Shown: positions 2,040-46,245 of the stretch, one piece after another
Layout: the number at the start of each line of letters is the position of its first letter
Position numbering within the stretch: position 1 is the first letter of the stretch
Origin: an uncultured archaeon
Lineage (GTDB): Archaea > Aenigmatarchaeota > Aenigmatarchaeia > CG10238-14 > SCSR01
DNA: 51,795 nt
Reading direction: 5' to 3'
Assembly (NCBI GenBank): GCA_964366355.1
Contig: CAYITO010000002.1
Span: forward strand, 1-51,795
Notes under the pieces: model-generated
Database searches by the model: none
Seen by the model: only the letters and a program-made list of their open reading frames with translations
Told to the model about the DNA's origin: nothing
Position numbers and translations under genes: made by a program

Positions 2040-3107
2040 TTAGATAAGTCTGATTTTATTACCTCTAAAAATTGCAACTAAATTTCTAGAATATGTAATT
2101 CTACCTATAACATCGGCTTCAACTCTATTTCTTTCAAGAAAATCTAATAAATCATCTTTAGAATTTTTAGAAACAATAAAAGAAAAACCCCATCCCAAAT
2201 TGAAAGTTTTTAAGAATTCTTTATCAGTTAATGTTACACCTAAATCTTTAGCTGTATCTTGTACTAATTGAAAGATCGGTTGAGGTTTGAAGTTGTTGAA
2301 CTCAAATCCTATTTTACTATCGTTAAATTTCATCAATTTTCCAAACTTCAAATAAGCATCTCCTGTAATATGAACGGCAGCTTTAATTTTAAATTTTTTA
2401 GCAACTTTTGAAAATGATTCAAAATATACTTTAGTTGGCTTTAAAACTTCGTGGACAAGTTCCGTATCAAAACCATTAGGTATATAAAATGGATTATATT
2501 TACCGCCCCATTTTTTAAACAAAATTCTTCTAACTAATGATATACCATTACTATGCAATCCGGAACTTCTTAATCCTATTATTACGTCATCGATTTCAAG
2601 ATTATTCCCCCAAATTATTTCATTCTCAGTAAGTTCACCCACACAGCTGCAAATTATATGAAAAGGATTTTCAGATACACCATTAATTAATTCCTTTACG
2701 TCAGCAATTTCTCCTCCTACAATTGGAACTCGTGCCTGATTTGCCCCTTTCTTAATACCTTTAACTAATTCTGAAATAATTTTTGGTTCAGATTTATGTA
2801 TATCAATATTATCTGCGAGTGAAACTGGTTTAGCACCAGAACGAATAATATCATTTACAGTCATAGCTACAGCATCAATTCCTATAGTATCAAACTTGTT
2901 TGCCAATTGAGCTATCAGAACTTTCGTACCAACTCCTTCAATTACATGATCTTGATATTTTCCGTTGCCAACAGAATATATAGTATTGTAAGGTAGTTTT
3001 GTCATGGGATATTCATAAGCTTTTTCGAAATCACTAAGATTGGCTTTTGATTCTGCTCTAGAATCTCTATCAACACCTGCATCAGAATAGGTAATTTCTT
3101 TTTCCAT
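2040..3107 (-). CDS. purM: Phosphoribosylformylglycinamidine cyclo-ligase (AIR synthetase, PurM)
   Basis: PurM-like N- and C-domains (DAGVD ... VGGEIADV). The likely start is the internal Met MEKEITY at 3107, not the ORF-track start at 3218. Confidence 0.85.
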   Translation of the reverse strand: MEKEITYSDAGVDRDSRAESKANLSDFEKAYEYPMTKLPYNTIYSVGNGKYQDHVIEGVGTKVLIAQLANKFDTIGIDAVAMTVNDIIRSGAKPVSLADNIDIHKSEPKIISELVKGIKKGANQARVPIVGGEIADVKELINGVSENPFHIICSCVGELTENEIIWGNNLEIDDVIIGLRSSGLHSNGISLVRRILFKKWGGKYNPFYIPNGFDTELVHEVLKPTKVYFESFSKVAKKFKIKAAVHITGDAYLKFGKLMKFNDSKIGFEFNNFKPQPIFQLVQDTAKDLGVTLTDKEFLKTFNLGWGFSFIVSKNSKDDLLDFLERNRVEADVIGRITYSRNLVAIFRGNKIRLI

Positions 3108-3159
3108 ATCTCTACTTTTGACAGTAGAATTTATAAATTGACTGAAAACAAAGTGGATT

Positions 3160-3411
3160 ATGATGTTCTCTCTAGATATATCAGAGGTTGCAGAGAGGAG
3201 ACTAAAGAAATTTGACAAAGAACTTCAAAGAAGGTTCTTCAAGAAAGTAGAAAAGTTGAAAATAAATCCATATCATGGCAAACCTCTACGATACGGCTTA
3301 TCTGGTACGTGGGAACTGTATTTTGAGAAAAGTTTTAGAATTTTGTATTCCATAGATAAGAACAGTAAGAAAGTAACTATTGAATCTATATGGCACAAAG
3401 ACGAATTTTAG
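3160..3411 (+). CDS. RelE/ParE-family type II toxin (mRNA interferase-like)
   Basis: 83 aa. GKPLRYGLSGTWELYFEKSFRILYSIDKNSKKVTIESIWHKDEF is the canonical RelE/ParE C-terminal core. Confidence 0.75.
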   Translation: MMFSLDISEVAERRLKKFDKELQRRFFKKVEKLKINPYHGKPLRYGLSGTWELYFEKSFRILYSIDKNSKKVTIESIWHKDEF

Positions 3412-3617
3412 ATATTAAGCTCTTTTTTGACATCATCTAAGGATCTGACTTTACCTTTTTTAATTGCTTCCTTGCCAGCCATAACCTCTTTCAGCAATTT
3501 TGGATTAGACAAAATCTCCAAGGTATCTGTTAAAGACTCCATCTCCCGTTTAGTTGCCATTCTGTTCTCTATTCTCCTCAATTCCTTGTAGATGTCCTCC
3601 AGCTTTATTTGGGCCAT
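3408..3617 (-). CDS. Small antitoxin-like protein, convergent with the RelE toxin and overlapping it by 4 bp
   Basis: 69 aa. Its C-terminus EILSNPKLLKEVMAGKEAIKKGKVRSLDDVKKEL resembles type II antitoxin C-termini and the antitoxin at 14212. A TATA-like tttataaa lies about 27 bp upstream on the minus strand. Confidence 0.5.
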   Translation of the reverse strand: MAQIKLEDIYKELRRIENRMATKREMESLTDTLEILSNPKLLKEVMAGKEAIKKGKVRSLDDVKKELNI

Positions 3618-3850: not shown

Positions 3851-4651
3851 TCAAATCTTTTTCCTTACATAATCTACAATCGAATCAAAAATATACTTCC
3901 CGTCACCGTATTCTTCATTGCTGTTAGATGTCCAATCGGGATACTGAAACTTGAAAAAAGAATCTTCTGGATGGGGCATGAATGCCAAAACATTTCCCTC
4001 TGGATTGCATATACCAGCTATGTCATCAACAGAACCATTCGGATTAAACGGATACTCCCCATTGGCTAGTTCACCATCCTGTTTAGCATATCTCAAGACA
4101 ATTTGCTTGTTTTCATCCAATTTTTCCAGGACATCTTTTGGCGCAATAAAACGTCCCTCGCCATGCGCAGTTGGCGCCCTGATGAGCTTACCTATAGGCA
4201 CCGATTCTGTTAACTTGCAGTTGGAGCTTTGATTTTTCATTGTTATCCATCTGCATTCGAATCTTGCCGATGCGTTGTTTGCTAGGACTGCCTCCGGATA
4301 TTCCGACATGCCGTCTATTGCCGGCAGAAATCCCGCTTCAACTAGAATCTGGAAACCGTTGCACATGCCCAATAGCGCTCTACCGCTTCTTACAAACCTC
4401 TCCATCTCATCTCCAATTTTTGTCTTCAATTCCTTTCCGAAAATTGCACCTGAGCGAATGTAATCGCCATAGGAAAAACCGCCAGGTAGAACAACTAAAT
4501 GATAATCCAAAAGGTTTTGTTCTCTAGCAATCCTGTTCAAGTGGCATACATCAGCTTTAACGCCTAGATGATCCAGAACGTTCTTCACATCGCCATCTCT
4601 ATTGGTTCCAGCAACTCTAAGAATGCAAACACGTATATCGTCTGTATTCAT
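3851..4651 (-). CDS. purQ: Phosphoribosylformylglycinamidine synthase I, glutaminase subunit (PurQ)
   Basis: 266 aa class-I glutamine amidotransferase with PurQ-like sequence (LPGGFSYGDY ... GMCNGFQIL ... HPE). Confidence 0.85.
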   Translation of the reverse strand: MNTDDIRVCILRVAGTNRDGDVKNVLDHLGVKADVCHLNRIAREQNLLDYHLVVLPGGFSYGDYIRSGAIFGKELKTKIGDEMERFVRSGRALLGMCNGFQILVEAGFLPAIDGMSEYPEAVLANNASARFECRWITMKNQSSNCKLTESVPIGKLIRAPTAHGEGRFIAPKDVLEKLDENKQIVLRYAKQDGELANGEYPFNPNGSVDDIAGICNPEGNVLAFMPHPEDSFFKFQYPDWTSNSNEEYGDGKYIFDSIVDYVRKKI

Positions 4652-6559: not shown

Positions 6560-8449
6560 TCAAACAAGAAATGGCGGCAAATCAACTTTCGGTACTGCAA
6601 CAATGTATTCGTTGAATGCCAATATACCCTTATGCAGATTATCGCGCAAATATCCCCAACCATGTATGTAAACTGGATTAAATCCAGCAGGAGTTAAAAA
6701 ATAAATGTGTTCTATTCCTGCTTCTTCTAGTCGTTTATGGAATTCTTTTGTTTCCGTTTCAGACCAAATATCATTTATGCCTACATCTAGGTAAAGTGTC
6801 ATATGATTTATCTGCTCTTTAGGTGGTATTTTAACTTTATTAAAAATTACAAAATCGCCCTTTGTTGTAAAGGATATTGGATCATATAAAACATATCTTT
6901 GATAAAAACCACTATAACCTGCCAAAAACCCAAACAACTCAGGATGCCTAAATCCTATCCAAAAGGCGCCATGCCCACCAATAGAAAAACCCAAAATGCC
7001 CCGTGCTGATTTGTCTGCTATTGTTCTGTATGTGGAATCTATATATGGAATTAAATCCTTCACTATGTAGTCTTCATAATTGCCGCATGAACGGACTTCT
7101 GGATGTTTACTTACTGCAATGAAAGGATTGAACCCGCTACAACCATTTTCCAATCCACTGTCATCTATGTCGGGCATTACGAATATTATTTCTTCAAGAC
7201 CTTCTTTTGTAAGCTTATCCAAAGTTTTATCTATGTCCGCTTTTTTAAGCCAGGCATTATGGTCTTCTGCTGCTCCATGCATGAGATATAAAACTGGATA
7301 GTTTTTTGAACTAGAATAATAACTAGGTGGGAGGTATATGAGGTATTTTCTCTCCTTCTTCAAGGCTGGGCTATAAAAGCTCATCTCTGCAAAAGGTTGG
7401 CAATCCCCTTGCCCAATAGCGCACCAAGAACAAGTTCTACATGCCCAGTCAGAGGATGCAGACTTTATGGGTTTATAACTTCCATCAGAACATTTGTATA
7501 CACCTTGGTATGCTCCGCCACAACCAAGCCCCTGTTGCTGTTCTATTGTACCTTGATCATATTCCCCACATCTAACTCCTATGTATTCGTCACAAGTTAT
7601 TGGCTGAGATTCTATTGGTGATTCACTTCCCTGTGATTGACTTTTCCCAATAAGTGTAGGGGCACAAACACTCTGATAATCAAAATCTTGAGGCGGCTGT
7701 AGAAAGAAATTACAGCAATCACCATAACCTTCACATAAATTATCGCACCAGCATTCTTTACCATCACCGATACCAAATGATTTGCCACACTTATCTTTAG
7801 TACAGATAAGTCCAGCAGATTGTGGAATTCCTGATGATGTAGTAATCGGGGTCGGCGCAGATGATGGTTGCCCTCCGCAAAGCTGCTGATAATCAGAACA
7901 GCAATCTTTGTTACCAGTACAAATTGTATCACAGTAGCACGGCGGTGATGAGCCTAGTACTGGTTTATTATCTTTATTGCAATAGTTTTTACCGTCATCT
8001 GGATCAATATTTGCGCAACCACCAGAAGATTGAGGTGTTGGTTGTGGTGTGGGAGAAGGTGCAGCACCTTTGCAAACACTTTGATAACCTTGAGAGCCTG
8101 TGCAGCAATCACCATAACCTTCACATAAATTATCGCACCAGCATGGCTGAGAAGTAGAGGATACGCCTTCTCCACCGCATTTATTTTGGCAACTGCCTTC
8201 GTATGATGCAGATGGTATCGAAGTAGTGCTTACACACTGTCCATTGCTGCATGTAGTTCCTGAAGGGCATTTGATAAAATTCCAATCCTTGAAGCCATCG
8301 TTATTGATGTCTTTACATTCCCAAAGGAAATCAGTGCCTTGGCATACGGATGCCGTACATGCATCTTGTTGTGCCGTAACTATTAAATTAGATAATAGGA
8401 ATAACAAAGATCCTGTGACTGCAATAAAAAAGAAATATGAAAGTTTCAT
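6560..8449 (-). CDS. Secreted esterase (Esterase-D / putative-esterase fold, GFSIGGHG nucleophile elbow) with an N-terminal signal peptide and three somatomedin-B-like Cys-rich modules
   Basis: Signal peptide MKLSYFFFIAVTGSLLFLLS. The Cys-rich modules are ...CWCDNLCEGYGDCCTGSQGYQSVC, ...CYCDTICTGNKDCCSDYQQLC and ...CWCDNLCEGYGDCC...DYQSVC. The C-terminal half has a G-x-S-x-G esterase motif and a conserved His. Confidence 0.7.
   Translation of the reverse strand: MKLSYFFFIAVTGSLLFLLSNLIVTAQQDACTASVCQGTDFLWECKDINNDGFKDWNFIKCPSGTTCSNGQCVSTTSIPSASYEGSCQNKCGGEGVSSTSQPCWCDNLCEGYGDCCTGSQGYQSVCKGAAPSPTPQPTPQSSGGCANIDPDDGKNYCNKDNKPVLGSSPPCYCDTICTGNKDCCSDYQQLCGGQPSSAPTPITTSSGIPQSAGLICTKDKCGKSFGIGDGKECWCDNLCEGYGDCCNFFLQPPQDFDYQSVCAPTLIGKSQSQGSESPIESQPITCDEYIGVRCGEYDQGTIEQQQGLGCGGAYQGVYKCSDGSYKPIKSASSDWACRTCSWCAIGQGDCQPFAEMSFYSPALKKERKYLIYLPPSYYSSSKNYPVLYLMHGAAEDHNAWLKKADIDKTLDKLTKEGLEEIIFVMPDIDDSGLENGCSGFNPFIAVSKHPEVRSCGNYEDYIVKDLIPYIDSTYRTIADKSARGILGFSIGGHGAFWIGFRHPELFGFLAGYSGFYQRYVLYDPISFTTKGDFVIFNKVKIPPKEQINHMTLYLDVGINDIWSETETKEFHKRLEEAGIEHIYFLTPAGFNPVYIHGWGYLRDNLHKGILAFNEYIVAVPKVDLPPFLV
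7713..7754. repeat. Intragenic 42-nt exact duplication (copy 1) within the SMB-like modules
   Basis: cagcaatcaccataaccttcacataaattatcgcaccagcat is identical to 8103..8144. The offset is 390 nt, which is in frame. Confidence 0.9.
8103..8144. repeat. Intragenic 42-nt exact duplication (copy 2)
   Basis: Identical to 7713..7754. Confidence 0.9.
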
Positions 8450-26126: not shown

Positions 26127-28001
26127 TTAAATCACGCCTGCTCTGACCAAAACCACTGCTATGATTATCACTACAACTACTATTGCGATTATAGGCAGTA
26201 CATCACCGCCTGCGCCTGGCACTGTTGGTGTTGGGGTTGGAGCTGGTGTTGGTGTGGGTTTCGGAGTTGGAGTCGGGGCTGGAACAGTACTGGGTACACT
26301 TGGAGCGGCCTCTTCAAATGAAATTGCAAATACTGAAAATCCAGGTGTCTCGGCTTCATAAGTTATGATGTCCGTGCCCTCCAAAACTTTGGTTGTGCTT
26401 AACCTGTTCCATACGCTATTTGCGAATCTGTTCAAATACATCTTGTCTGCATTTGCATTATTTGCAGTAATCCATTGCTTCTCTACTTTGAATTTGATTT
26501 TAGCCTTGTCTATAGAGCTTTCAGGCAGTCCAGATGGTTTTATATCCAAGTATCTGAATATTTTTCCTGGAGCTTCTGTCACATCTGCAGGCTTTGCATC
26601 CAGCTTATTTACAGTAACATAAACAGAAGTGACATCATTCTTTACAGTAATCGATATAGATGCTACATCACCTGTTTTGATTTCTGCTATCGCCTCTTTG
26701 CCTGCCGACACCTTTGCAATAAATACCTGTGTCTTTCCTTCTGATGGTGTTGAGACAACTGGCACTGATATGGTGGATGTTGTTCCAGGTCCTCCTGGTG
26801 CTGACGGCAGAAGCGTAATGGAGAACTTGACCTTCGATTCTGCTTTGTTGCTTGATGGGTCTGTACATTGCACCGTAATTGTGTGATCCCCGCTATTCAA
26901 ATCGCTAAGGGTAATATCTACACCTTGGCTTAGGGTCTTGAAGTTTCCGGTATTAATCTTATAATCACAACCTGTTGTGCCTGCCACGTTATCGCCAGCA
27001 TTGGCCTTAAATATGACTGTTGCTTCTGTGAATGCACTGCCGCCTGTAGGTTTAAGTATGTTAACATTTGGGTTTTCATTGTCGTTGGCAGTTATAATTA
27101 CTGTCACATTGGAAGCTGTGAAGTTTACATTCCCAGGGTTCAAAAATACTGTTGCGTTGTATGACCTGTTTGATAGCTGGGGTATAGAAGTAATGTTCAA
27201 GCCACTATCTCCTTGTATGTTCGTGAAGTTGAGCATTTTCCATCCAGAGATGTTGGTGTTCAGGCCAATGTATATAATTTCTCTGGTGGCGTTAGTAGTT
27301 ACACGGGAGTTGGTTGCATTGCTAAGGGTACTTGTTCTATTTTCATGGGCGGATATGTTGAATATCATATTTTCATTATTGACAAAATTATAGGTTCTGT
27401 TTCCGTTTGTTCCATTGAGCATGATAGATAGGTTTATCGGATGCTGTGGCACATAGAAGGTAACAGTTGTGGAGTTACCGAGTCCTCCTCCTACCGCAAG
27501 TGCATCTGTAGTATTGTAGGTACGTATTGTCAAGTTCCAGTTCCCAGCTGCTCCCAACTCTGTCTGGCTTATGTTAATCCACCACATGCCCCCTGTATCG
27601 TTGCCCATAAATGTGACATTAGTTCCTGAACCGTTCAACAGTCTGCCACTTGAATAAAATGTGAAGTTCAAGCTGCGGTTGTATGTTCCATCGCTGTTAT
27701 TTGCAGTGAGATTTTGATAAGCAAAAGTCCAAGTAACATTTGAAATGTTATAAAAATCAGTGGTCGCTGCAGTTGCATTATGTGTTATGTTTATAGCAAA
27801 ACTGTATATGTTAGAAGCGTTATATGTCTGGTTCCCTAAGTTCTTTATAGTGACATAAGACTCGTTTGTAGATAGATATGAGAAGTTTCCTCCAGTCATT
27901 TTAAACTGTGGAGTTGCCAACGCAGAAATCGACATTACTGATAAAGAAACCAAAGCTGTAAGAAAAACTAGCAATAATTTCGTTTGTGGTCTGTCAACCA
28001 T
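26127..28001 (-). CDS. Secreted cell-surface (S-layer-like) glycoprotein with an N-terminal signal peptide, dozens of N-x-S/T sequons, a Pro/Thr linker and a C-terminal TM anchor
   Basis: Signal peptide MVDRPQTKLLLVFLTALVSLSVMSISALA. More than 30 N-x-S/T sequons by eye. The C-terminus is PSTVPAPTPTPKPTPTPAPTPTPTVPGAGGDVLPIIAIVVVVIIIAVVLVRAGVI. Confidence 0.7.
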   Translation of the reverse strand: MVDRPQTKLLLVFLTALVSLSVMSISALATPQFKMTGGNFSYLSTNESYVTIKNLGNQTYNASNIYSFAINITHNATAATTDFYNISNVTWTFAYQNLTANNSDGTYNRSLNFTFYSSGRLLNGSGTNVTFMGNDTGGMWWINISQTELGAAGNWNLTIRTYNTTDALAVGGGLGNSTTVTFYVPQHPINLSIMLNGTNGNRTYNFVNNENMIFNISAHENRTSTLSNATNSRVTTNATREIIYIGLNTNISGWKMLNFTNIQGDSGLNITSIPQLSNRSYNATVFLNPGNVNFTASNVTVIITANDNENPNVNILKPTGGSAFTEATVIFKANAGDNVAGTTGCDYKINTGNFKTLSQGVDITLSDLNSGDHTITVQCTDPSSNKAESKVKFSITLLPSAPGGPGTTSTISVPVVSTPSEGKTQVFIAKVSAGKEAIAEIKTGDVASISITVKNDVTSVYVTVNKLDAKPADVTEAPGKIFRYLDIKPSGLPESSIDKAKIKFKVEKQWITANNANADKMYLNRFANSVWNRLSTTKVLEGTDIITYEAETPGFSVFAISFEEAAPSVPSTVPAPTPTPKPTPTPAPTPTPTVPGAGGDVLPIIAIVVVVIIIAVVLVRAGVI

Positions 28002-28206
28002 AATAATCTTTATTTTTCCTTATTTATAAATATTTGTTTAAGCGAATCAGCCTCGCTTTCGTTTGTTATATTATTGTGAAACTCTTATATAAACCTGCTT
28101 TTTTACCATTTCACTATGTTATAATAGTTAATTATTGTTAGGCTATAGAAGGCCTTTCTGAAGTTTTAGCTTTATTTTCTGCTCTATTCGGCTTCGTTTT
28201 TTTATT

Positions 28207-28884
28207 CTACTGACGCTTTGCCACAAGAACAAACTGATACGCAAATATGGTGGGGAAAAGGACTGCCAAAAGATACAGGAAATTATAGATAATGCCGAAT
28301 TTGGACAATGACGGATAAACAAGCTGTATTGGTATGGGGGTAAATTTTATCCTCTCAATCTCAAATCTTCTCAACAGTTGAGTTGCAGACTTCAAGGTAA
28401 AAAATCTCAAATGGGTTCTATCTAAAATGCCTTTGTCTTGGTATCCAAACCTGCCGAATAACAGGTTTAACCGCATATATATATTGGCAACATTGGGCAA
28501 GGAAACTATAATTCTTCCGCCTTTTTTTAAAAATTTGGAAAAAAGGGCTAAAACTGCATCCGGATTCCTTAAATGCTCTAGTACATCTGCGAAGACGATA
28601 TAATCAAACCTCTCCTTTATCTTTGGAACAGATGCTTCCAAATCTAATGTGAAAACCCGTTTGTAGGCGCCCCTGCACCTTCTTGCAGCTTCCTTGTCTT
28701 TATCTATCCCAAAAACTGTACAACCTTTGTTCCTTATTAGTCTTCCAATTATGCCATCATAGCACCCGACATCCAAAACTTGAGTATTGGACTGGATTAA
28801 TTTTGCAATTTGGTTATGACTGCTAAACCGGTCATCTTTATAGGCGTATTTTTTTATCATAATATCACAAAGAATTAATTTCAT
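28207..28884 (-). CDS. Class I SAM-dependent methyltransferase
   Basis: VLDVGCYDGIIG (motif I) ... DYIVFADVLEHL. Confidence 0.75.
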   Translation of the reverse strand: MKLILCDIMIKKYAYKDDRFSSHNQIAKLIQSNTQVLDVGCYDGIIGRLIRNKGCTVFGIDKDKEAARRCRGAYKRVFTLDLEASVPKIKERFDYIVFADVLEHLRNPDAVLALFSKFLKKGGRIIVSLPNVANIYMRLNLLFGRFGYQDKGILDRTHLRFFTLKSATQLLRRFEIERIKFTPIPIQLVYPSLSKFGIIYNFLYLLAVLFPTIFAYQFVLVAKRQ

Positions 28885-28933
28885 TTATGGAGTATCTATA
28901 AGTTATTGATAAAATGGCACATGGTGTAGGAAT

Positions 28934-29683
28934 GTGGTTGAAAAGCCGAAAATAATCGTGGTAATTCTTGCGCAGAATTCTGAGAAGACTATTGGAAAAA
29001 CTTATCAAGACATTCCACATGGGTTAGTGAAGAAAATAATTATACATGACGATGCCAGCAAGGATCGGACAGTTTATATTGCCAAAAGACTTGGTTTAGA
29101 GACAATTGTACAAAAAATATCTAAAGGTTATGGCGGATCGCAAAAGGCTGCCTATACAGAAGCACTGAAGCAGAATGCCGATGTCATAGTAATGTTGCAT
29201 GCTGATTATCAATATGATCCAAAGAAAATTCCGGAATTAGTAAGACCTCTGATTGAAGGAAAGCGTGATATAATGCTCGGTTCTAGGATGATTGGCAAAG
29301 GTGCATTGAGAGGCAGAATGCCTTTGTGGAGATATGTGGGAAATAAGGTTCTCACCAAGATTGAAAACATAGTTCTAGGATTGGATTTATCGGAATTTCA
29401 CACCGGACTTAGGGCTTATAACAGAAACTTCCTTCAAACCATCCCATTTAAACTTAATTCGGACGATTTCGTTTTTGATCAGCAGGTTCTGATACAGGCT
29501 GTAGTTTTTGGCTTTAAAGAAAGGATTGGTGAAATTGGCATTCCCACCCGGTATTTCAAAGAAGGCTCAAGCATAAGTCTTAAAAATTCATTGATATACA
29601 CATTAGACACGGTTAAAAGTCTCTTAATATATATTCTACACAAATACAGAATTAAAACTTCTAAAAATTTGATTAGAAAGTGA
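28934..29683 (+). CDS. Family-2 glycosyltransferase (dolichyl-phosphate sugar synthase-like)
   Basis: IIVVILAQNSEKTIGKT ... IIHDDASKDRT ... GT-A fold DxD region. Confidence 0.75.
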   Translation: MVEKPKIIVVILAQNSEKTIGKTYQDIPHGLVKKIIIHDDASKDRTVYIAKRLGLETIVQKISKGYGGSQKAAYTEALKQNADVIVMLHADYQYDPKKIPELVRPLIEGKRDIMLGSRMIGKGALRGRMPLWRYVGNKVLTKIENIVLGLDLSEFHTGLRAYNRNFLQTIPFKLNSDDFVFDQQVLIQAVVFGFKERIGEIGIPTRYFKEGSSISLKNSLIYTLDTVKSLLIYILHKYRIKTSKNLIRK

Positions 29684-29733
29684 ATTGCCTGCATTTTTAT
29701 TTTATAAAGTGTCTATTCTAACTAACGTTAGAC

Positions 29734-30849
29734 ATGCGCATCGCAATAACGAAACCGCATATATCTACTAGAAATAAGATATTGATTCTGCTGATTTTAG
29801 GCATTATTGTTAGATTGTTATTTTGGTCTTCCAAATTGTCATTTGTTGACAACGAAAGCATTTCGCATTTAAGATATGCTGAAAGTATAATGAATTTGGA
29901 GATTCCTAAAACCCAGTGGATAGGCACAAAAGACGGTTTTTATTCTTATGAATCTTACCCACCTAGCCTATATTTAATTACAGCTTCTTTTGGAATTTTT
30001 GCATCTAATATTTTTTCATTCACTCTCTTGGCAAAAATCGTTAGCCTAATTTTTTCTTTATTGACTCTTGCAGTTAGTGCAATCTATTCGCTTAAAATGA
30101 AAAATCATTATGTAATAGCATTAGTTGCCCTGATTCCCTTAGAGTGGTTCGAATCCTTACCGAGGTTTAATAACGACATTGTAGTGGCGTTTTTCGCTTC
30201 TTTGGTATTCCTGGTTGCATTAAAGGAGATTAATGCCAAAAATATGATTATTCTCGCTTTGTTTACTTCGCTGGCTCTACTTTCAAAATTTACTGCCATA
30301 TTGCTATTGATACCCATGCTACTCTACATTTGGTTTAATTCAAAAAATCTCAAATTCATTTTAATTTTCCTGGCCATCACGGCTTTTATTGCAGGTCCAT
30401 GGTATTTGAGAAATCTATTGCTTTATGGAGATCCCTTATTTGTTCCTTACACAGAAGCCGAACAGGCGGGCCCTAAAAGTCTTGCCTTCTTTATGGAGGG
30501 CTATGTATTCGGATTCTTCCCTTTTTGCACACTTGGTTACATTGAGGACATAGTAATTTTAGGCGTATCTGTTTTTCTCATATATACCATAATGAGAGGC
30601 TTGGAGGAAAGGTTTAGGCATATGGCATCTTCCAAGATTGTTGATCCGGCCGCCTTGTTTCTCCCATTGATATTTGTTGTTTGGATAGCCGTTAAATATG
30701 TATTTCCAAGTGGATCTGCTAAATATCTCCTTCCAGCTCTATTGCCTCTGGCGGTTATTTCTAGTTCCGGAACTAAAAACAAGTATATCGTTTGGTTTGT
30801 TAGCATTAGTTTTGCCTATCTGTTTATCAAAGTTTTATTAACATGCTGA
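29734..30849 (+). CDS. Polytopic membrane protein, probably a GT-C-type glycosyltransferase (ArnT/PMT-like), paralog 1
   Basis: 371 aa with about 10 predicted TM helices. It sits in a glycosylation gene context. The fold assignment is inference. Confidence 0.45.
   Translation: MRIAITKPHISTRNKILILLILGIIVRLLFWSSKLSFVDNESISHLRYAESIMNLEIPKTQWIGTKDGFYSYESYPPSLYLITASFGIFASNIFSFTLLAKIVSLIFSLLTLAVSAIYSLKMKNHYVIALVALIPLEWFESLPRFNNDIVVAFFASLVFLVALKEINAKNMIILALFTSLALLSKFTAILLLIPMLLYIWFNSKNLKFILIFLAITAFIAGPWYLRNLLLYGDPLFVPYTEAEQAGPKSLAFFMEGYVFGFFPFCTLGYIEDIVILGVSVFLIYTIMRGLEERFRHMASSKIVDPAALFLPLIFVVWIAVKYVFPSGSAKYLLPALLPLAVISSSGTKNKYIVWFVSISFAYLFIKVLLTC
29864..30260. repeat. About 400-bp near-identical segment (copy 1) shared by the two membrane-protein paralogs
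   Basis: agcatttcgcatttaagatatgctgaaagtataatgaatttggag ... ggagattaat is matched almost base-for-base at 31584..31980. The first clear mismatches fall near 30233 and 30237. Confidence 0.85.
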
Positions 30850-30861
30850 TAAAGTTTTAGT

Positions 30862-31416
30862 ATGAATGTCATTTTAAAGATTCTATTTAAGTTTCGTGCC
30901 AAATACTATGCGAAACATCTTTTTCCATATTTAAAGGGAACTGACAAGGTTTTGGATATTGGTGCTGGAAGTGGCTTTATCTCTGAACATTTGGCAGAAA
31001 AATGCTCAATGGAATTGGTTGATGTTAAGGATTACAACCAAACCTCACTTCCTTTGAAGATATTTGATGGCGAACATTTGCCTTATAGAAATAGCTCATT
31101 CGATAAATGCATTCTTGTAACTGTACTGCATCATGCTAGCTTGCCAAGGCAAATAAAATTATTAAAAGAAGCCAAAAGAGTTGGCAAAAAAGTTATAATC
31201 ATCGAGGCATTGTATTATAATTCTATTCAAAGCGTGTGGTTAAAATTCTACGATTTATTTTTAAATTTTATAGCAGGTGTTCCCGTAAAATGGACTTTCC
31301 ACGATGACAAGACTTGGAAACAGTTGTTTGGAAAAGTTGGCTTGAAATTGAAATCGGAAAAAGAATTCCCAGGAGCTATCGGATTGATAAAATTAAAGCT
31401 ATATGAGTTAGCATGA
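30862..31416 (+). CDS. Class I SAM-dependent methyltransferase
   Basis: VLDIGAGSGFISEHL (motif I) ... ILVTVLHH. Confidence 0.7.
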   Translation: MNVILKILFKFRAKYYAKHLFPYLKGTDKVLDIGAGSGFISEHLAEKCSMELVDVKDYNQTSLPLKIFDGEHLPYRNSSFDKCILVTVLHHASLPRQIKLLKEAKRVGKKVIIIEALYYNSIQSVWLKFYDLFLNFIAGVPVKWTFHDDKTWKQLFGKVGLKLKSEKEFPGAIGLIKLKLYELA

Positions 31417-31583
31417 TATTTCTTTAGTTGACTATCATTTACTTAATACGTTATAATTTAATTAAAAGGTGATACGGGATAAAAGGTTTAATATCACTTC
31501 CTATAAAGCATAAGATAATTCTCTTATTAGGTATAGGTATTATACTTCAAATTGTATATTGGAGTACTCGAATAAATATTTTT

Positions 31584-31980
31584 GACCACGATAGCATTTC
31601 GCATTTAAGATATGCTGAAAGTATAATGAATTTGGAGATTCCTAAAACCCAGTGGATAGGCACAAAAGACGGTTTTTATTCTTATGAATCTTACCCACCT
31701 AGCCTATATTTAATTACAGCTTCTTTTGGAATTTTTGCATCTAATATTTTTTCATTCACTCTCTTGGCAAAAATCGTTAGCCTAATTTTTTCTTTATTGA
31801 CTCTTGCAGTTAGTGCAATCTATTCGCTTAAAATGAAAAATCATTATGTAATAGCATTAGTTGCCCTGATTCCCTTAGAGTGGTTCGAATCCTTACCGAG
31901 GTTTAATAACGACATTGTAGTGGCGTTTTTCGCTTCTTTGGTATTCCTGGTTGCATTAAAGGAGATTAATACCAAAAATG
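31584..31980. repeat. About 400-bp near-identical segment (copy 2)
   Basis: See 29864..30260. The 3' parts of the two genes are much more diverged, which indicates gene conversion or a recent partial duplication. Confidence 0.85.
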
Positions 31981-32597
31981 TGATTATTCTCGCTTTGTTT
32001 ACATCTTTTGCGCTGTTATCAAATTATAATGCATTGGTGCTCGCCTTAGTTACTTTATTTTACATTAAAAACAATTCCAAGAACAGAAAATTAGTTATAA
32101 TGTTTATAGCTATAGTAGCTTTGCTTGCAGGTCCATGGTATTTGAGAAATCTATTGCTTTATGGAGATCCCTTATATGTGCCTTCGCTGATTCATACTGA
32201 AGATTATAAGCCTGCCAGAGGAGCAGGAATATTTTTTGAAAATTATTTTTTAGGGTTCTTTCCTAGTTGTATTGTTGGGCTTCACTTAAATTACATAACC
32301 CTGTTTTTAACAATTCTTATTATATTTTTTACAATGAGAAATTTAGAGGACAGATTTAAACACATGTTATCTCTCAAGATTGTTGATCCGATTGCGTTAT
32401 TTCTTCCACTTTTGTTGATTAGCTGGATTTTATTTGGTTATACTTATTCTGATTTATTTTCGCCACGTTATTTAATTTCAGGCATTTTGCCGTTATCTGT
32501 TGTCGCTTCTTCTAGCATTAAATCTAAATACGGATTTTGGATCATTTACATTGGATTTATGTATTTCTTTTTTCATAATTTCATAAATTGTTTGTAG
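31626..32597 (+). CDS. Polytopic membrane protein paralog 2. No canonical start codon lies upstream, although about 50 homologous in-frame codons are present
   Basis: The in-frame upstream translation YGIKGLISLPIKHKIILLLGIGIILQIVYWSTRINIFDHDSISHLRYAESI aligns to paralog 1 residues 10-50. It contains no ATG/GTG/TTG back to the stop at 31470-31472. Confidence 0.55.
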   Translation: MNLEIPKTQWIGTKDGFYSYESYPPSLYLITASFGIFASNIFSFTLLAKIVSLIFSLLTLAVSAIYSLKMKNHYVIALVALIPLEWFESLPRFNNDIVVAFFASLVFLVALKEINTKNVIILALFTSFALLSNYNALVLALVTLFYIKNNSKNRKLVIMFIAIVALLAGPWYLRNLLLYGDPLYVPSLIHTEDYKPARGAGIFFENYFLGFFPSCIVGLHLNYITLFLTILIIFFTMRNLEDRFKHMLSLKIVDPIALFLPLLLISWILFGYTYSDLFSPRYLISGILPLSVVASSSIKSKYGFWIIYIGFMYFFFHNFINCL

Positions 32598-32606
32598 TGT
32601 ATGTGC

Positions 32607-32636
32607 ATGGTAAACGTAATCAAAGCCGACGGCAAG
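32607..32636. repeat. Decayed duplicate of the 5' end of the ATP-cone gene (atggtaaacgtaatcaaagccgacggcaag, giving MVNVIKADGKL*)
   Basis: 27/30 identical, apart from a 3-nt indel, to 33180..33212 (atggtggacgtaataaaagccgacggcagcaag). Confidence 0.8.
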
Positions 32637-32669
32637 CTTTAATAGAATGCCAGCGTATCTTTATTTTGT

Positions 32670-32912
32670 ATGACCATGAAATCTGCAACAAACGAGGAAA
32701 GACTGTTAAGGCACTTGGAACCGAAGATAAGGAGAATAGTGCATGAAACTCTAAAGGAGGCCTTACCCAACGAAATATATTATCCTCCAGAATATAAGCT
32801 GAAAAAGAGCTTTGTAAAAAGGGTGTTGGAAGCTCAAAGAAGAGTTAAAGAAGGCAATGGAAAGACCTACACTTACGAAGAATTTAAAAGGAAGTTTCTA
32901 AAAGGTTTGTAG
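32670..32912 (+). CDS. Antitoxin partner of the RelE-like toxin (family unassigned)
   Basis: 80 aa, directly upstream of and abutting the toxin gene. Confidence 0.45.
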   Translation: MTMKSATNEERLLRHLEPKIRRIVHETLKEALPNEIYYPPEYKLKKSFVKRVLEAQRRVKEGNGKTYTYEEFKRKFLKGL

Positions 32913-33179
32913 ATGGAAAATCCTTATGATATTAAGATTGAATCCAAACTTGAAAAGTTGCTTAACAAGATAAAAAAGAAGGATAGGATTTTATACGAAA
33001 GGATTATTAAACAGATGCTAAAATTGGCTGAAACTCCTAAGCAAGGAAAACCATTGAGAAACATTCTAAAAGGTAAATGGAGAGTGCAAATTGGTCCTTT
33101 CGTATTGGTTTATGCAATTGACGAGAATCAACATAAAGTAGTATTTTTAGAGTTTGAACACCATGACAGGGTGTATTGA
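32913..33179 (+). CDS. RelE/ParE-family type II toxin
   Basis: GKPLRNILKGKWRVQIGPFVLVYAIDENQHKVVFLEFEHHDRVY. Its stop TGA is immediately followed by the ATG of the next gene. Confidence 0.75.
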   Translation: MENPYDIKIESKLEKLLNKIKKKDRILYERIIKQMLKLAETPKQGKPLRNILKGKWRVQIGPFVLVYAIDENQHKVVFLEFEHHDRVY

Positions 33180-33992
33180 ATGGTGGACGTAATAAAAGCC
33201 GACGGCAGCAAGCAGCCTTTCGAAAAATATAAAGTGGTTAGAACCTGCCTTAGAATGAAGGTAGATAGGGATGCTGCAGAGGGGATAGCAAACAGTATAG
33301 AAAAGAAGCTGTATGAAGGAATTGCAACCAAGCAAATCCTAAAGATGATCTTCAGTTACATAAGTGTATACAAGCCCCAAATGAAGCACCAAATAGATTT
33401 GCGGGAGGCTGTATGCCTATTAAGACCGAAACCTGATTTTGAACATTTCGTTGGGATGCTTCTAAAGGCTGAAGGATATGAAGTCAAAACAAACAAAATC
33501 GTCGCAGGAAGATGTGTAGAACATGAAATTGACGCTATTGCTAACAAGAGGAATGAAGCTTTGTATGTGGAAGCAAAACATCACTACAAGCCGCACTCTT
33601 ATACAGGCCTTGATGTTTTCCTTGAAACTCAGGCTACTTTTGAGGACTTGATAGAAGGCAAGAACAATTTTTCAAAGGCAGTTGTAATAACAAATGCCAA
33701 ACTGTCTGAACATGCCAAAAGATATGCGGAATGCAAGAATATTTCGGCCATAGGCTGGAGATATCCGAATGAAAATGGATTGGAATCTATGATAGAAAAG
33801 AATAGATTGTATCCGGTCACATTACTCAAAGGTTTGGATGTTAACATGCAAGCAAGACTGGCAGATAAGGGGATTATTTTGTTGAGCCAGCTTGCTGAAT
33901 ATAATGCGGAAAAATTGAACAAGATGGCGAAGATTGGCAAATCTAAAGCTAATCAAATCTTAAGGAAAGCCCATGAAATTTTAGGAAGCTGA
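33180..33992 (+). CDS. ATP-cone domain fused to an Mrr-like (PD-(D/E)xK) restriction-endonuclease domain and a C-terminal helix-hairpin-helix
   Basis: N-terminus VIKADGSKQPFEKYKVVRTCLRMKVDRDAAEGIANSIEKKL is an ATP-cone. The middle, FEHFVGMLLKAEGYEV ... HEIDAIA ... YVEAKHH ... AVVITNAKLSEHAKRYAECKNISAIGW, is Mrr_cat-like. The C-terminus, LLKGLDVNMQARLADKGIILLSQLAEYNAEKLNKMAKIGKSKANQIL, is an HhH. Confidence 0.6.
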   Translation: MVDVIKADGSKQPFEKYKVVRTCLRMKVDRDAAEGIANSIEKKLYEGIATKQILKMIFSYISVYKPQMKHQIDLREAVCLLRPKPDFEHFVGMLLKAEGYEVKTNKIVAGRCVEHEIDAIANKRNEALYVEAKHHYKPHSYTGLDVFLETQATFEDLIEGKNNFSKAVVITNAKLSEHAKRYAECKNISAIGWRYPNENGLESMIEKNRLYPVTLLKGLDVNMQARLADKGIILLSQLAEYNAEKLNKMAKIGKSKANQILRKAHEILGS

Positions 33993-34027: not shown

Positions 34028-34714
34028 TTACGATTCGCAACCTATTCCATTTTTATTTCCATCAAATCGATGTGGATCTGGTGGCAAAACACGGAATTTT
34101 TTATACGATATATCCTTACAGTCCAAATCGGGCGGTGGCGGCGGGATACAAACATCGGGATAAGAAGGATCGCAGTTTTCTTTAGATTCGACGGTAGTAG
34201 ATTGTTGCCCTGACTGTGTACTATTTTGCTGAGTTTCTGTGGCGGCTTGTTGTGGCTGTTCACAATCGCTTGGACAAAGTTCGTAACTTTCGTCGGCATC
34301 GCATTTGCCATTTCCGCAGCATGTTGAAGAGTAGATAAGTGTGCAACTCCCAGAAACGCAAGAATTTTTATAACAACTATTCTTTTCCATTCCTTTGCAT
34401 CCCTCAACTTCACCTTTCAATACAGTATATTTGCATTTGAAGTCTGTTGTCTTGTTGCAATATTCATAGGTGCATGGGTTGCCGTCATTGCACGACTCTT
34501 TGCAACTTTCTTCAACCTTAACACTTTCTGCAGTCGCGGAAGATTTAGTTTCAGTTGGTTCTGGCTCATTGTCTATTTCAACAGCTGTAGTTTCCGATGT
34601 TATAATATATTTATCATTGTTAATGGAATTTTGAAAGCTGAAATTGGTTATAACATAAGTAGTTAGTGAAGAAATTGCCACGGCCAAAACAAGGTAGATT
34701 GCAAGCTTATCCAT
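34028..34714 (-). CDS. Secreted Cys-rich protein with a C-terminal Excalibur (extracellular Ca-binding) domain
   Basis: Signal/TM segment MDKLAIYLVLAVAISSLTTYVI. About 24 Cys. The C-terminal DCKDISYKKFRVLPPDPHRFDGNKNGIGCE matches the Excalibur DxDxDGxxCE pattern. Confidence 0.6.
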   Translation of the reverse strand: MDKLAIYLVLAVAISSLTTYVITNFSFQNSINNDKYIITSETTAVEIDNEPEPTETKSSATAESVKVEESCKESCNDGNPCTYEYCNKTTDFKCKYTVLKGEVEGCKGMEKNSCYKNSCVSGSCTLIYSSTCCGNGKCDADESYELCPSDCEQPQQAATETQQNSTQSGQQSTTVESKENCDPSYPDVCIPPPPPDLDCKDISYKKFRVLPPDPHRFDGNKNGIGCES

Positions 34715-44115: not shown

Positions 44116-44213
44116 TGGGTCTGCCCGGATTCGAACCGGGGTTTACGCGATTTTGAAAGTTTCGTCAACGCGCCGTCCTTTGCGGATTTTTTAAACCGCT
44201 AGACTACAAACCC
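44116..44213 (-). tRNA. tRNA-Val (anticodon GAC) with a 12-nt intron at 37/38 and a possible second insertion in the D-loop
   Basis: Minus-strand sequence GGGTTTG TA GTCT [AGCGGTTTAAAAAATCCGCAAA] GGAC G GCGCG TTGACG[AAACTTTCAAAA]T CGCGT AAAC CCCGG TTCGAAT CCGGG CAGACCC A. The acceptor and T arms are perfect. U33 and purine-37 are present. Confidence 0.65.
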
Positions 44214-46148: not shown

Positions 46149-46245
46149 CGCCTAGGGCGAGATTTGAACTCGCAAGGTCTTTCGACCGCTGGTTACTCGC
46201 CAAAGGATAGCAAACCAGTGCCATACCAGGTTAGGCGACCTAGGC
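46149..46245 (-). tRNA. tRNA-Ser (anticodon GCU), class II with a long variable arm and a 13-nt intron at 37/38
   Basis: Minus strand: GCCTAGG TC GCC TAACCTGGTAT GGC A CTGGT TTGCTA[TCCTTTGGCGAGT]A ACCAG CGGTCGAAAGACCTT GCGAG TTCAAAT CTCGC CCTAGGC G. All stems are perfect and the total is 97 nt. Confidence 0.85.

Follow-up and report, generated by a model that had tools for sequence, protein, structure and literature searches.

A toxin–antitoxin cassette probably lodged in the duplicated start of an AF1548-family nuclease gene and patchily distributed in an Aenigmatarchaeota subclade

Integrative elements such as e14, which resides in icd, and those that integrate into tRNA genes regenerate the end of the gene that they target. 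Toxin–antitoxin (TA) modules, for their part, can be mobile cassettes carried by genomic islands and chromosomal integrons. The locus described here can be compared with both, and lies in a 51,795-nucleotide stretch of DNA, hereafter the window, which comprises positions 1 to 51,795 of the forward strand of contig CAYITO010000002.1 (GenBank assembly GCA_964366355.1) from an uncultured archaeon of the Aenigmatarchaeota. Within the window, a 543-bp cassette encoding a putative antitoxin and a RelE/ParE-family toxin stands directly in front of a gene for a predicted nuclease of the AF1548 family, and a decayed copy of the start of that nuclease gene is present on the far side of the cassette. We consider it likely that this is a self-promoted type II TA cassette that has become lodged in the first ~30 nt of the AF1548-family gene, where it would behave as a facultative selfish module. 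The unusual features of the locus are its geometry and its dynamics: a promoter-plus-TA unit within a gene terminus, a long duplication of that terminus, and the recurrence of the arrangement across lineages.

The direct repeat that brackets the cassette is ungapped and 31 nt long, with positions 32604-32634 (TGCATGGTAAACGTAATCAAAGCCGACGGCA) matching positions 33177-33207 (TGAATGGTGGACGTAATAAAAGCCGACGGCA) at 27 of 31 nucleotides and at a distance of 573 nt. When random 31-mers from the window were each compared with their own upstream 1 kb, most reached 15-20/31, and scores of 26 or higher came only from a genuine 1.7-kb tandem duplication elsewhere in the window. Enclosed by the repeat are a TATA-like box, an 80-amino acid (aa) antitoxin-like gene and an 88-aa RelE/ParE-family toxin gene. 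These two genes and the 270-aa nuclease gene are plus-strand open reading frames (ORFs) that follow one another without spacers (Table 1), the antitoxin stop TAG running directly into the toxin ATG, and the toxin stop TGA (33177-33179) immediately preceding the ATG of the nuclease gene. The left repeat copy forms an 11-codon ORF, the stub, whose first 28 nt duplicate the beginning of the 270-aa gene and whose stop codon TAA (32640-32642) falls within the TATA-like box of the cassette. A preliminary description of the window, made from the sequence alone, had proposed a duplicated gene start around a 543-bp antitoxin and RelE cassette whose RelE stop is joined directly to the nuclease ATG. Each part of that proposal is upheld.

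Table 1. Coordinates of the nuclease locus and associated features in the window
Feature	Position	Strand	Basis or remark
Ancestral intergenic region preceding the nuclease gene in relatives	27952-28131		80% identity to L014 and L003 intergenic DNA
Lineage-specific inserted glycosylation gene block	28132-32606		right end 9 nt upstream of the stub
Orphan stub of the nuclease gene start, MVNVIKADGKL then stop	32607-32642	+	left repeat copy, core 32604-32634
Cassette left end and putative archaeal promoter	32634-32669	+	conserved block, TATA position
Antitoxin-like gene, 80 aa, distantly related to DUF2683	32670-32912	+	context, sub-threshold PF10884
RelE/ParE-superfamily toxin gene, 88 aa	32913-33179	+	PF05016
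TATA-like TATTTTTA in the toxin 3' end, candidate internal promoter	33142-33149	+	~30 nt upstream of the nuclease ATG
Right repeat copy, the functional nuclease gene start	33177-33207	+	repeat comparison
ATP-cone/Mrr_cat PD-(D/E)xK nuclease/AF1548-like HhH gene, 270 aa	33180-33992	+	Pfam, alignment
ATP-cone domain	33189-33353	+	PF03477
Mrr_cat PD-(D/E)xK nuclease domain; D118, E131, K133	33432-33746	+	PF04471
AF1548-like HhH domain	33810-33983	+	PF22357

Among ~98 loci that carry the nuclease gene, an upstream copy of the gene start (at least 20/28) is confined to those bearing the cassette or its antitoxin, with the single exception of one random-looking 20/28 match. An identical structure is found at L001, L002 and L094, which come from other assemblies of the same groundwater population and are 99.9% identical to the window, so the arrangement is not an assembly artefact. 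The sole difference between the window and L001 over the 2.1 kb compared lies in toxin codon 86 (33168-33170), which reads AGG (R) in the window but AAG (K) in all three of the population's other assemblies. A gapped extension of the repeat to 38 nt (GTGTAT...), reaching into the last codons of the toxin gene, is probably a coincidence; toxins at unrelated loci also end in AY before the stop. An Rfam search returned no known RNA element in the region and identified only two tRNA genes elsewhere in the window, both on the minus strand (44116-44213 and 46149-46245); these are 97-98 nt long and probably contain introns, and ARAGORN called neither.

The reading of the locus as an insertion draws on close relatives in which the same site is empty, with the gene intact and neither cassette nor repeat present. 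There are five of these, L014 (P0005), L099 (P0008), L008 (P0015), L097 (P0011) and L098 (P0016), among the 11 close relatives that were typed. In the case of L014, a groundwater Aenigmatarchaeota metagenome-assembled genome with a nuclease that is 72% identical, the divergent upstream gene is the same as in the occupied sites, and ~200 nt of intergenic DNA that aligns position for position with L003, L006 and L095 leads directly into the intact nuclease gene; neither stub nor cassette intervenes. In L003 this shared intergenic DNA leads into the decayed 30-nt gene start, then the cassette, and then the intact gene. The upstream divergent gene and intergenic DNA of L099 likewise match those of the occupied sites. 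Besides the window, the layout of stub, cassette and gene is found in L003 (P0006), L010 (P0017) and L100 (P0012), and stubs of equal length with the junction AAGC/TTTAATA are present in L003, L006, L095, L010 and L100. The toxin stop abuts the nuclease ATG in L003 and L100 and overlaps it by one base in L010, and the spacing from repeat to gene is 572-573 nt in four lineages. No cassette was found within 3 kb of the nuclease gene in 78 more distant GTDB loci (L016-L093). The insertion proposed in the preliminary description thus has its counterpart in cassette-less relatives at the same site, two of which share the upstream intergenic DNA. The possibility that the repeat is part of a conserved upstream ORF in TA-less relatives was also considered, and because those relatives have no stub, the insertion reading stands.

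The two repeat copies are not identical in any lineage, and the stub peptides vary (MVNVIKADGKL, MANVTKPYCKL, VANVTENNGKL and MSNATKDYSKL). That of the window is the least decayed of the stubs compared, and it matches its own gene start at 25/28, those of L003 and L006 at 25/28 and that of L014 at 26/28. Gene conversion between the window stub and its own gene start was rejected, as the match to the latter is no better than that to the gene starts of other lineages.

The toxin scores 42.6 bits against PF05016 (cutoff 23; E = 9e-11), and a profile search of the PDB retrieves RelE (9g12) and Mycobacterium tuberculosis Rv2866 with E-values of about 1e-8 to 3e-8. Against the NCBIfam YafQ model it reaches 46.5 where the cutoff is 87.25, and it is therefore not a YafQ equivalog. 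From these matches we assign the toxin as a new member of the RelE/ParE superfamily, for which an mRNA-interferase or gyrase-poisoning activity is only predicted. As in type II TA pairs, the small antitoxin gene is adjacent to the toxin gene and co-oriented with it, and the pair recurs as a unit.

The 80-aa protein is called an antitoxin because its gene lies directly upstream of a RelE/ParE toxin gene in three unrelated genomic contexts. Its match to PF10884 (DUF2683) has an E-value of 0.0037 and falls below the cutoff. The family is small, with 39 proteins that share the motif YPPES...F(V/I)KRV...GKGKTY and whose distant members are annotated as PF10884. An AlphaFold2 model consists of three helices (pLDDT 79.5, pTM 0.41) and has no significant Foldseek match in the PDB; a PDB sequence search with the protein also gave no match, and nothing useful on DUF2683 was found in the literature. 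A metagenome scan for the antitoxin gave at least 3 loci among the matches listed, and the frequency of the cassette is thus under-sampled.

The cassette may also bring its own promoter. AAGC together with TTTAATAG (32638-32645) begins 32 nt upstream of the antitoxin ATG, a T-rich box follows the TATA-like box at 32657-32666, and the block AAGCTTTAATA is unchanged across the six lineages with the cassette. Upstream of 48 long ORFs in the window, TATA-like 8-mers concentrate at -34 to -29, and the position of the cassette's TATA-like box agrees with this window-wide position, which fits a promoter role. Related AAG-TTTAT/ATTAAT elements occur upstream of cassette homologues at the unrelated loci L101 and L103. 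We infer that the block acts as a promoter. The second TATA-like element, TATTTTTA, overlaps the conserved ...VFLEFEHH... codons of the toxin and also sits near the genome-typical TATA position.

Sequences spanning the antitoxin C-terminus and the toxin N-terminus fall into two types, type 1 being seen in the window, L010 and L100, and type 2 in L003 and L101. The last of these shows, together with L103, that the cassette family is also present at unrelated genes. In L101 (GCA_964646855.1, CAZYHQ010000004.1, positions 2600-3295) a type 2 cassette with a toxin frameshifted by 1 nt directly adjoins a convergent aminotransferase gene at its 3' end, and a second copy of that gene's last ~25 codons (~77 nt) stands on the cassette's promoter side. 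The remnant peptide is SYATAYEKIEKVMDRIEKCLRK and the real aminotransferase C-terminus is SYATSYEKIEEATDRIERCLRK; the local alignment score of the duplication is 40, compared with a maximum of 24 in 300 shuffles. The window and L101 are alike in having the remnant on the promoter side and the intact gene touching the toxin stop, and on sequence grounds L101 is a second, independent insertion with duplication of a gene end. No significant gene-end repeat was found flanking other TA modules, namely those at 3160-3617 in the window, the vapBC-like and ParE-like modules of L010, and the replacement module of L006.

Both cassette genes are under purifying selection, with ratios of nonsynonymous to synonymous divergence (dN/dS) of 0.05-0.13, the antitoxin being at ~0.1 and the toxin at 0.05-0.09 between lineages. 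Antitoxin dS is 0.65 between the window and L006 and 0.83 between the window and L003, whereas nuclease dS is saturated. Third-position identity in the toxin is 0.60-0.66 against 0.41-0.49 in the nuclease (window-L010, window-L100 and L010-L100), and Fisher tests of cassette versus nuclease give p-values of 7e-5 to 2e-3. In the window comparisons, synonymous divergence of the cassette is below that of the adjacent nuclease, which suggests that the cassette has been laterally exchanged between lineages by recombination. Slow synonymous change in general does not account for this difference, since in the L006-L095 pair the antitoxin (dS 0.49) is more diverged than the nuclease (dS 0.23). The nuclease gene of L097 (region 1750-1900) is itself recombinant: its 5' flank (97% identity) and first ~45-60 nt (90%) match L008, and the gene beyond that point follows the L100 lineage. 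Homologous recombination with a breakpoint inside the conserved start of the gene thus does exchange one upstream state for another. Neighbour joining of the nuclease sequences places the occupied P0017 outside the clade formed by the other close relatives, in which occupied and empty sites are mixed, and the sisters P0011 (empty) and P0012 (occupied) share 89% aa identity.

The toxin also turns over. In L006, L015 and L095 the stub and antitoxin are kept, and the toxin has been swapped for a 47-aa ORF and an inverted, divergent RelE-like gene. In L006 (4420-5000) and L095 (970-1550), which belong to the P0007/P0002 lineage, this inverted replacement encodes 104 aa and is 34% identical; the antitoxin retained there is 83-86% identical to that of the window and, with its toxin replaced, is an orphan. 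No relative of the cassette was found in viral contigs, and a phage or viral origin was rejected. Taken together, the patchiness, recombination, selection and toxin turnover indicate that the cassette is a facultative selfish addiction module, patchy in one Aenigmatarchaeota subclade, rather than an obligatory partner of the nuclease.

The protein encoded by the interrupted gene matches Mrr_cat (E = 3e-11), the ATP-cone (26.3 bits; cutoff 25.8) and AF1548-like_C (25.1; cutoff 23.9) in Pfam, which supports the ATP-cone, Mrr and helix-hairpin-helix (HhH) assignment given in the preliminary description. All 38 relatives sampled match the ATP-cone and Mrr_cat, and 34 of the 38 match the C-terminal HhH domain PF22357. 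The family profile aligns over its full length with AF1548 (PDB 1Y88; E = 4.5e-39), and the nuclease fold also matches NucS and type IIM/IV restriction enzymes. Residues D118, E131 and K133, which are invariant in 38 sequences, are equivalent to D38, E51 and K53 of AF1548, for which these three were predicted as the catalytic triad (PMC1821046). The N-terminal domain has the sequence and the four-helix/beta-hairpin fold of an ATP-cone, with the match limited to positions 3-64 of the 88-position profile; lysines K6 and K18 never vary, and the residue after K6 is A or F, not R. The classical ATP-cone motif has KR where this nuclease family has KA or KF. The presence of an ATP-cone suggests a nuclease that may be gated by the nucleotide pool.

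A protein search returns 890 relatives of ~270-280 aa with the same domain architecture, and a GTDB scan gives at least 581 loci, in Aenigmatarchaeota, Bathyarchaeia, Methanoculleus, Asgard lineages, Iainarchaeota and Undinarchaeota. The combination of ATP-cone, PD-(D/E)xK nuclease and HhH is thus already in Pfam-annotated databases but unstudied, and it is a large archaeal family rather than a local fusion. The literature search found nothing on an ATP-cone joined to a nuclease and, for the family, only the AF1548 prediction of the 2007 Global Ocean Sampling paper. Gene neighbourhood is conserved between the window, L003 and L008, with an NTP-transferase, PGK and, contig permitting, TIM; GAPDH is also nearby in the window and L003, and an NTP-transferase is near the nuclease gene in L006 and L098, as far as the called genes extend. 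ORF clustering across 80 GTDB loci revealed no neighbour shared between clades and no conserved defence-type neighbours, and a PADLOC-DB 2.0 search with all three proteins gave no defence-system match apart from one non-significant hit at E = 0.007. Strong residue conservation, one-per-locus occurrence and clade-specific synteny give the nuclease the look of a conserved core gene and not of a member of a defence island. The preliminary description had called it a candidate defence or repair effector. The repair half of that suggestion fits, whereas a defence role is disfavoured by the lack of a PADLOC match or island context and by the strong conservation of residues; a repair, housekeeping or nucleotide-pool-responsive nuclease would be the natural guess and fits better.

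In the window the ancestral intergenic region (Table 1) is ~4.5 kb from the stub, and the gene next to it (26127-28001, minus strand) is orthologous, at 50% aa identity, to the gene that lies divergently upstream in L014. The glycosylation block in between includes a methyltransferase gene on the minus strand, a GT2 gene, a PMT_2/DUF8201 glycosyltransferase gene, a further methyltransferase gene and a 5'-truncated glycosyltransferase paralogue, and contains a tandem duplication with a period of 1736 nt (29843-30142 versus 31579-31878, 99% over 300 nt). Because this block was inserted up to 9 nt from the stub, the ancestral proximal promoter of the nuclease gene has been removed. Directly downstream of the nuclease gene, 34028-34714 on the minus strand encodes a Cys-rich 228-aa protein with a weak match to the Dicty_CTDC repeat. 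The same slot holds a Dicty_CTDC protein in L097 and L098 and an LTD-domain protein in L006, L008 and L010, with Dicty_CTDC slightly further away in L099, and it looks as though it is occupied by a fast-evolving surface protein.

TA modules are dense in these small genomes. In the window itself, an 83-aa RelE/ParE-like toxin gene (3160-3411, plus strand) is convergent with a 69-aa ORF (3408-3617, minus strand) that has a GK-rich C-terminal motif, the two overlapping by 4 nt; the pair sits between minus-strand ORFs at 2040-3218 and 3851-4651 that by eye are purM-like and purQ-like. This convergent arrangement of toxin and small ORF, which is unusual for a TA pair, is also seen in L006 (4474-4933) and L010 (8293-8799). 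L010 additionally carries a PIN/MazE-type (vapBC-like) pair and a further ParE-like gene at 7520-8160, 3-4 kb downstream of the nuclease locus.

In the interpretation that we favour, the gene start would have been duplicated when the cassette arrived. The extra copy would be a long target duplication, made by template switching or at a staggered break, or else what remained of the resident allele. With its start duplicated, the conserved gene would have survived the insertion, and selection would admit only those insertion events that regenerate the gene end. Transcription from the cassette promoter would yield a leaderless or short-leader mRNA running through antitoxin, toxin and nuclease, with the nuclease as a third cistron that is probably translated by termination-reinitiation at the TGA-ATG junction. 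As in other type II systems, the antitoxin-toxin complex would autoregulate its promoter, and since the nuclease would be the third cistron behind that promoter, its expression would be subject to the same autoregulation and its level would follow the state of the TA pair. Dependence on the cassette promoter should be strongest in the window, where the ancestral promoter was lost to the 4.5-kb insertion. The direct repeat would at the same time offer a route to precise loss of the cassette by recombination between its copies; clean empty sites are compatible with such loss without proving it. A more far-reaching proposal, which we regard as speculative and on balance unlikely, would make the cassette a mobile but non-autonomous unit in DPANN archaea, which inserts within 30-80 nt of a host gene's terminus, duplicates the gene end by template switching or widely staggered breaks and passes between lineages by way of the conserved repeat, with the nuclease coming under TA autoregulation in some lineages. 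If this were true, the duplication would keep the host gene intact and weld the cassette to it, and the only loss tolerated would be a precise one mediated by the repeat.

Several other explanations were weighed. The stub could have arisen by allelic replacement, in which an incoming fragment with cassette and nuclease recombined with the resident gene through an illegitimate left junction at codon ~10 and left the stub as a resident leftover. Indeed, L097 directly shows recombination between lineages with a breakpoint in the first ~60 nt of the gene, the cassette is younger than the divergence of its host genes, and the repeat copies are nowhere identical. However, the left junction is the same in all lineages, pointing to a single event after which both models predict one structure, and the first 30 nuclease codons beside the cassette are not raised in similarity in comparisons of the window with other lineages; we see allelic replacement as a possible but doubtful origin. 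A relic of a site-specific integrative element, with the repeat as attL and attR and the element since reduced to its TA pair, would explain why the direct repeats regenerate the target gene and why the cassette occupies exactly one site in different lineages. It is nonetheless quite improbable: no integrase or recombinase is present in the insert or among the called neighbours of occupied sites, the insert is small with a near-constant spacing to the gene, viral contigs hold no relative, and the insertion at the aminotransferase gene, with a duplication of ~77 rather than ~30 nt, argues against a single att specificity. We give still less weight to the idea that the stub is a functional leader peptide or upstream ORF of the TA operon and not debris. 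Its 11-codon frame does end in the TATA-box TAA without indels in the window, L095, L006, L010 and L003 (the last with a GTG start). The peptide sequence, on the other hand, decays freely, the start codon is lost in L100, similarity of the stub among close lineages is no higher than that of neighbouring intergenic DNA, and the window stub has no promoter of its own, so that such a function is scarcely credible.

The preliminary description had also raised the possibility of a three-gene unit. In its strongest form this would be a functional system in which a co-opted TA pair regulates the ATP-cone nuclease, whether as a stress or infection switch or as a tripartite TA or defence unit, and in which selection for this joint function keeps the genes linked. 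The contiguity that it calls for is certainly there, as four diverged lineages (window, L003, L010 and L100) retain toxin-nuclease junctions of zero nt or a 1-nt overlap; the cassette genes are selectively constrained, and the window nuclease lacks its ancestral promoter. Yet where the cassette is missing, in the five empty close relatives and all 78 distant loci, the nuclease is intact and equally conserved, and in L006 and L095 the toxin was exchanged for an inverted gene, leaving the nuclease with its own upstream region. The family also resides at unrelated genes, and none of the proteins has a PADLOC match. The zero-nt junctions of the proposed unit are real, but a facultative and exchanged cassette whose toxin is swapped or broken in some lineages makes a functional unit improbable.

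The interpretation of the locus as a self-promoted, facultative TA cassette has to be set against a number of considerations that weigh on the other side. Antitoxin identity comes from context; the protein matches nothing significantly in Pfam or the PDB, and its fold is not recognisably a DNA-binding one. It is gene geometry alone that suggests co-transcription and translational coupling, and the TATA-like element at 33142-33149 could drive the nuclease independently of the cassette. The dS values were computed from genes of 78-88 codons and are hence noisy. As to how the duplication arose, staggered breaks, template switching and allelic replacement with an illegitimate junction would all fit. 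Finally, two independent insertion sites of the cassette family were examined, and a third site, L103, has no flanking repeat.

The empty, occupied, toxin-swapped and recombinant states amount to a natural before-and-after series of TA colonisation, which shows how a TA module can reside inside a conserved gene without killing it. If long gene-end duplication proved to be regular for the cassette family, this would be an undescribed mode of TA mobility in archaea. The ATP-cone/PD-(D/E)xK/HhH family deserves attention in its own right, being present in hundreds of archaeal species, with a structure (1Y88) and invariant catalytic residues.

Compared with described systems, the nuclease shares Mrr_cat and AF1548-like_C with AF1548 of Archaeoglobus fulgidus, whose crystallised chain of 199 aa is without the N-terminal ATP-cone carried by all 38 relatives; for both proteins function is a prediction. 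The ATP-cones of NrdR and ribonucleotide reductase are fused to a repressor and a reductase, whereas here the domain is fused to a PD-(D/E)xK nuclease, and its nucleotide binding is predicted. The cassette resembles the RelBE and YafQ-DinJ modules in having a small antitoxin gene directly upstream of, and abutting, a gene for an ~88-aa toxin of the RelE/ParE fold, and it differs in that the antitoxin is not RelB, DinJ or a recognisable ribbon-helix-helix or helix-turn-helix protein, but a helical, DUF2683-like one. Like TA cassettes of integrons and genomic islands, it is a promoter-bearing two-gene unit found at different loci, patchy in close relatives and subject to toxin turnover; unlike them, it has no attC-like site or integron context and sits inside gene termini with duplication of the target. 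The likeness to e14 and the tRNA-type integrative elements lies in an insert bounded by a direct repeat of the gene terminus, which leaves the target intact and makes precise excision possible. It departs from these elements in that it has no integrase, its insert is only 543 bp, its duplications differ in length (~30 versus ~77 nt), and its targets at the two sites are opposite ends of protein-coding genes, 5' in the window and 3' in L101.

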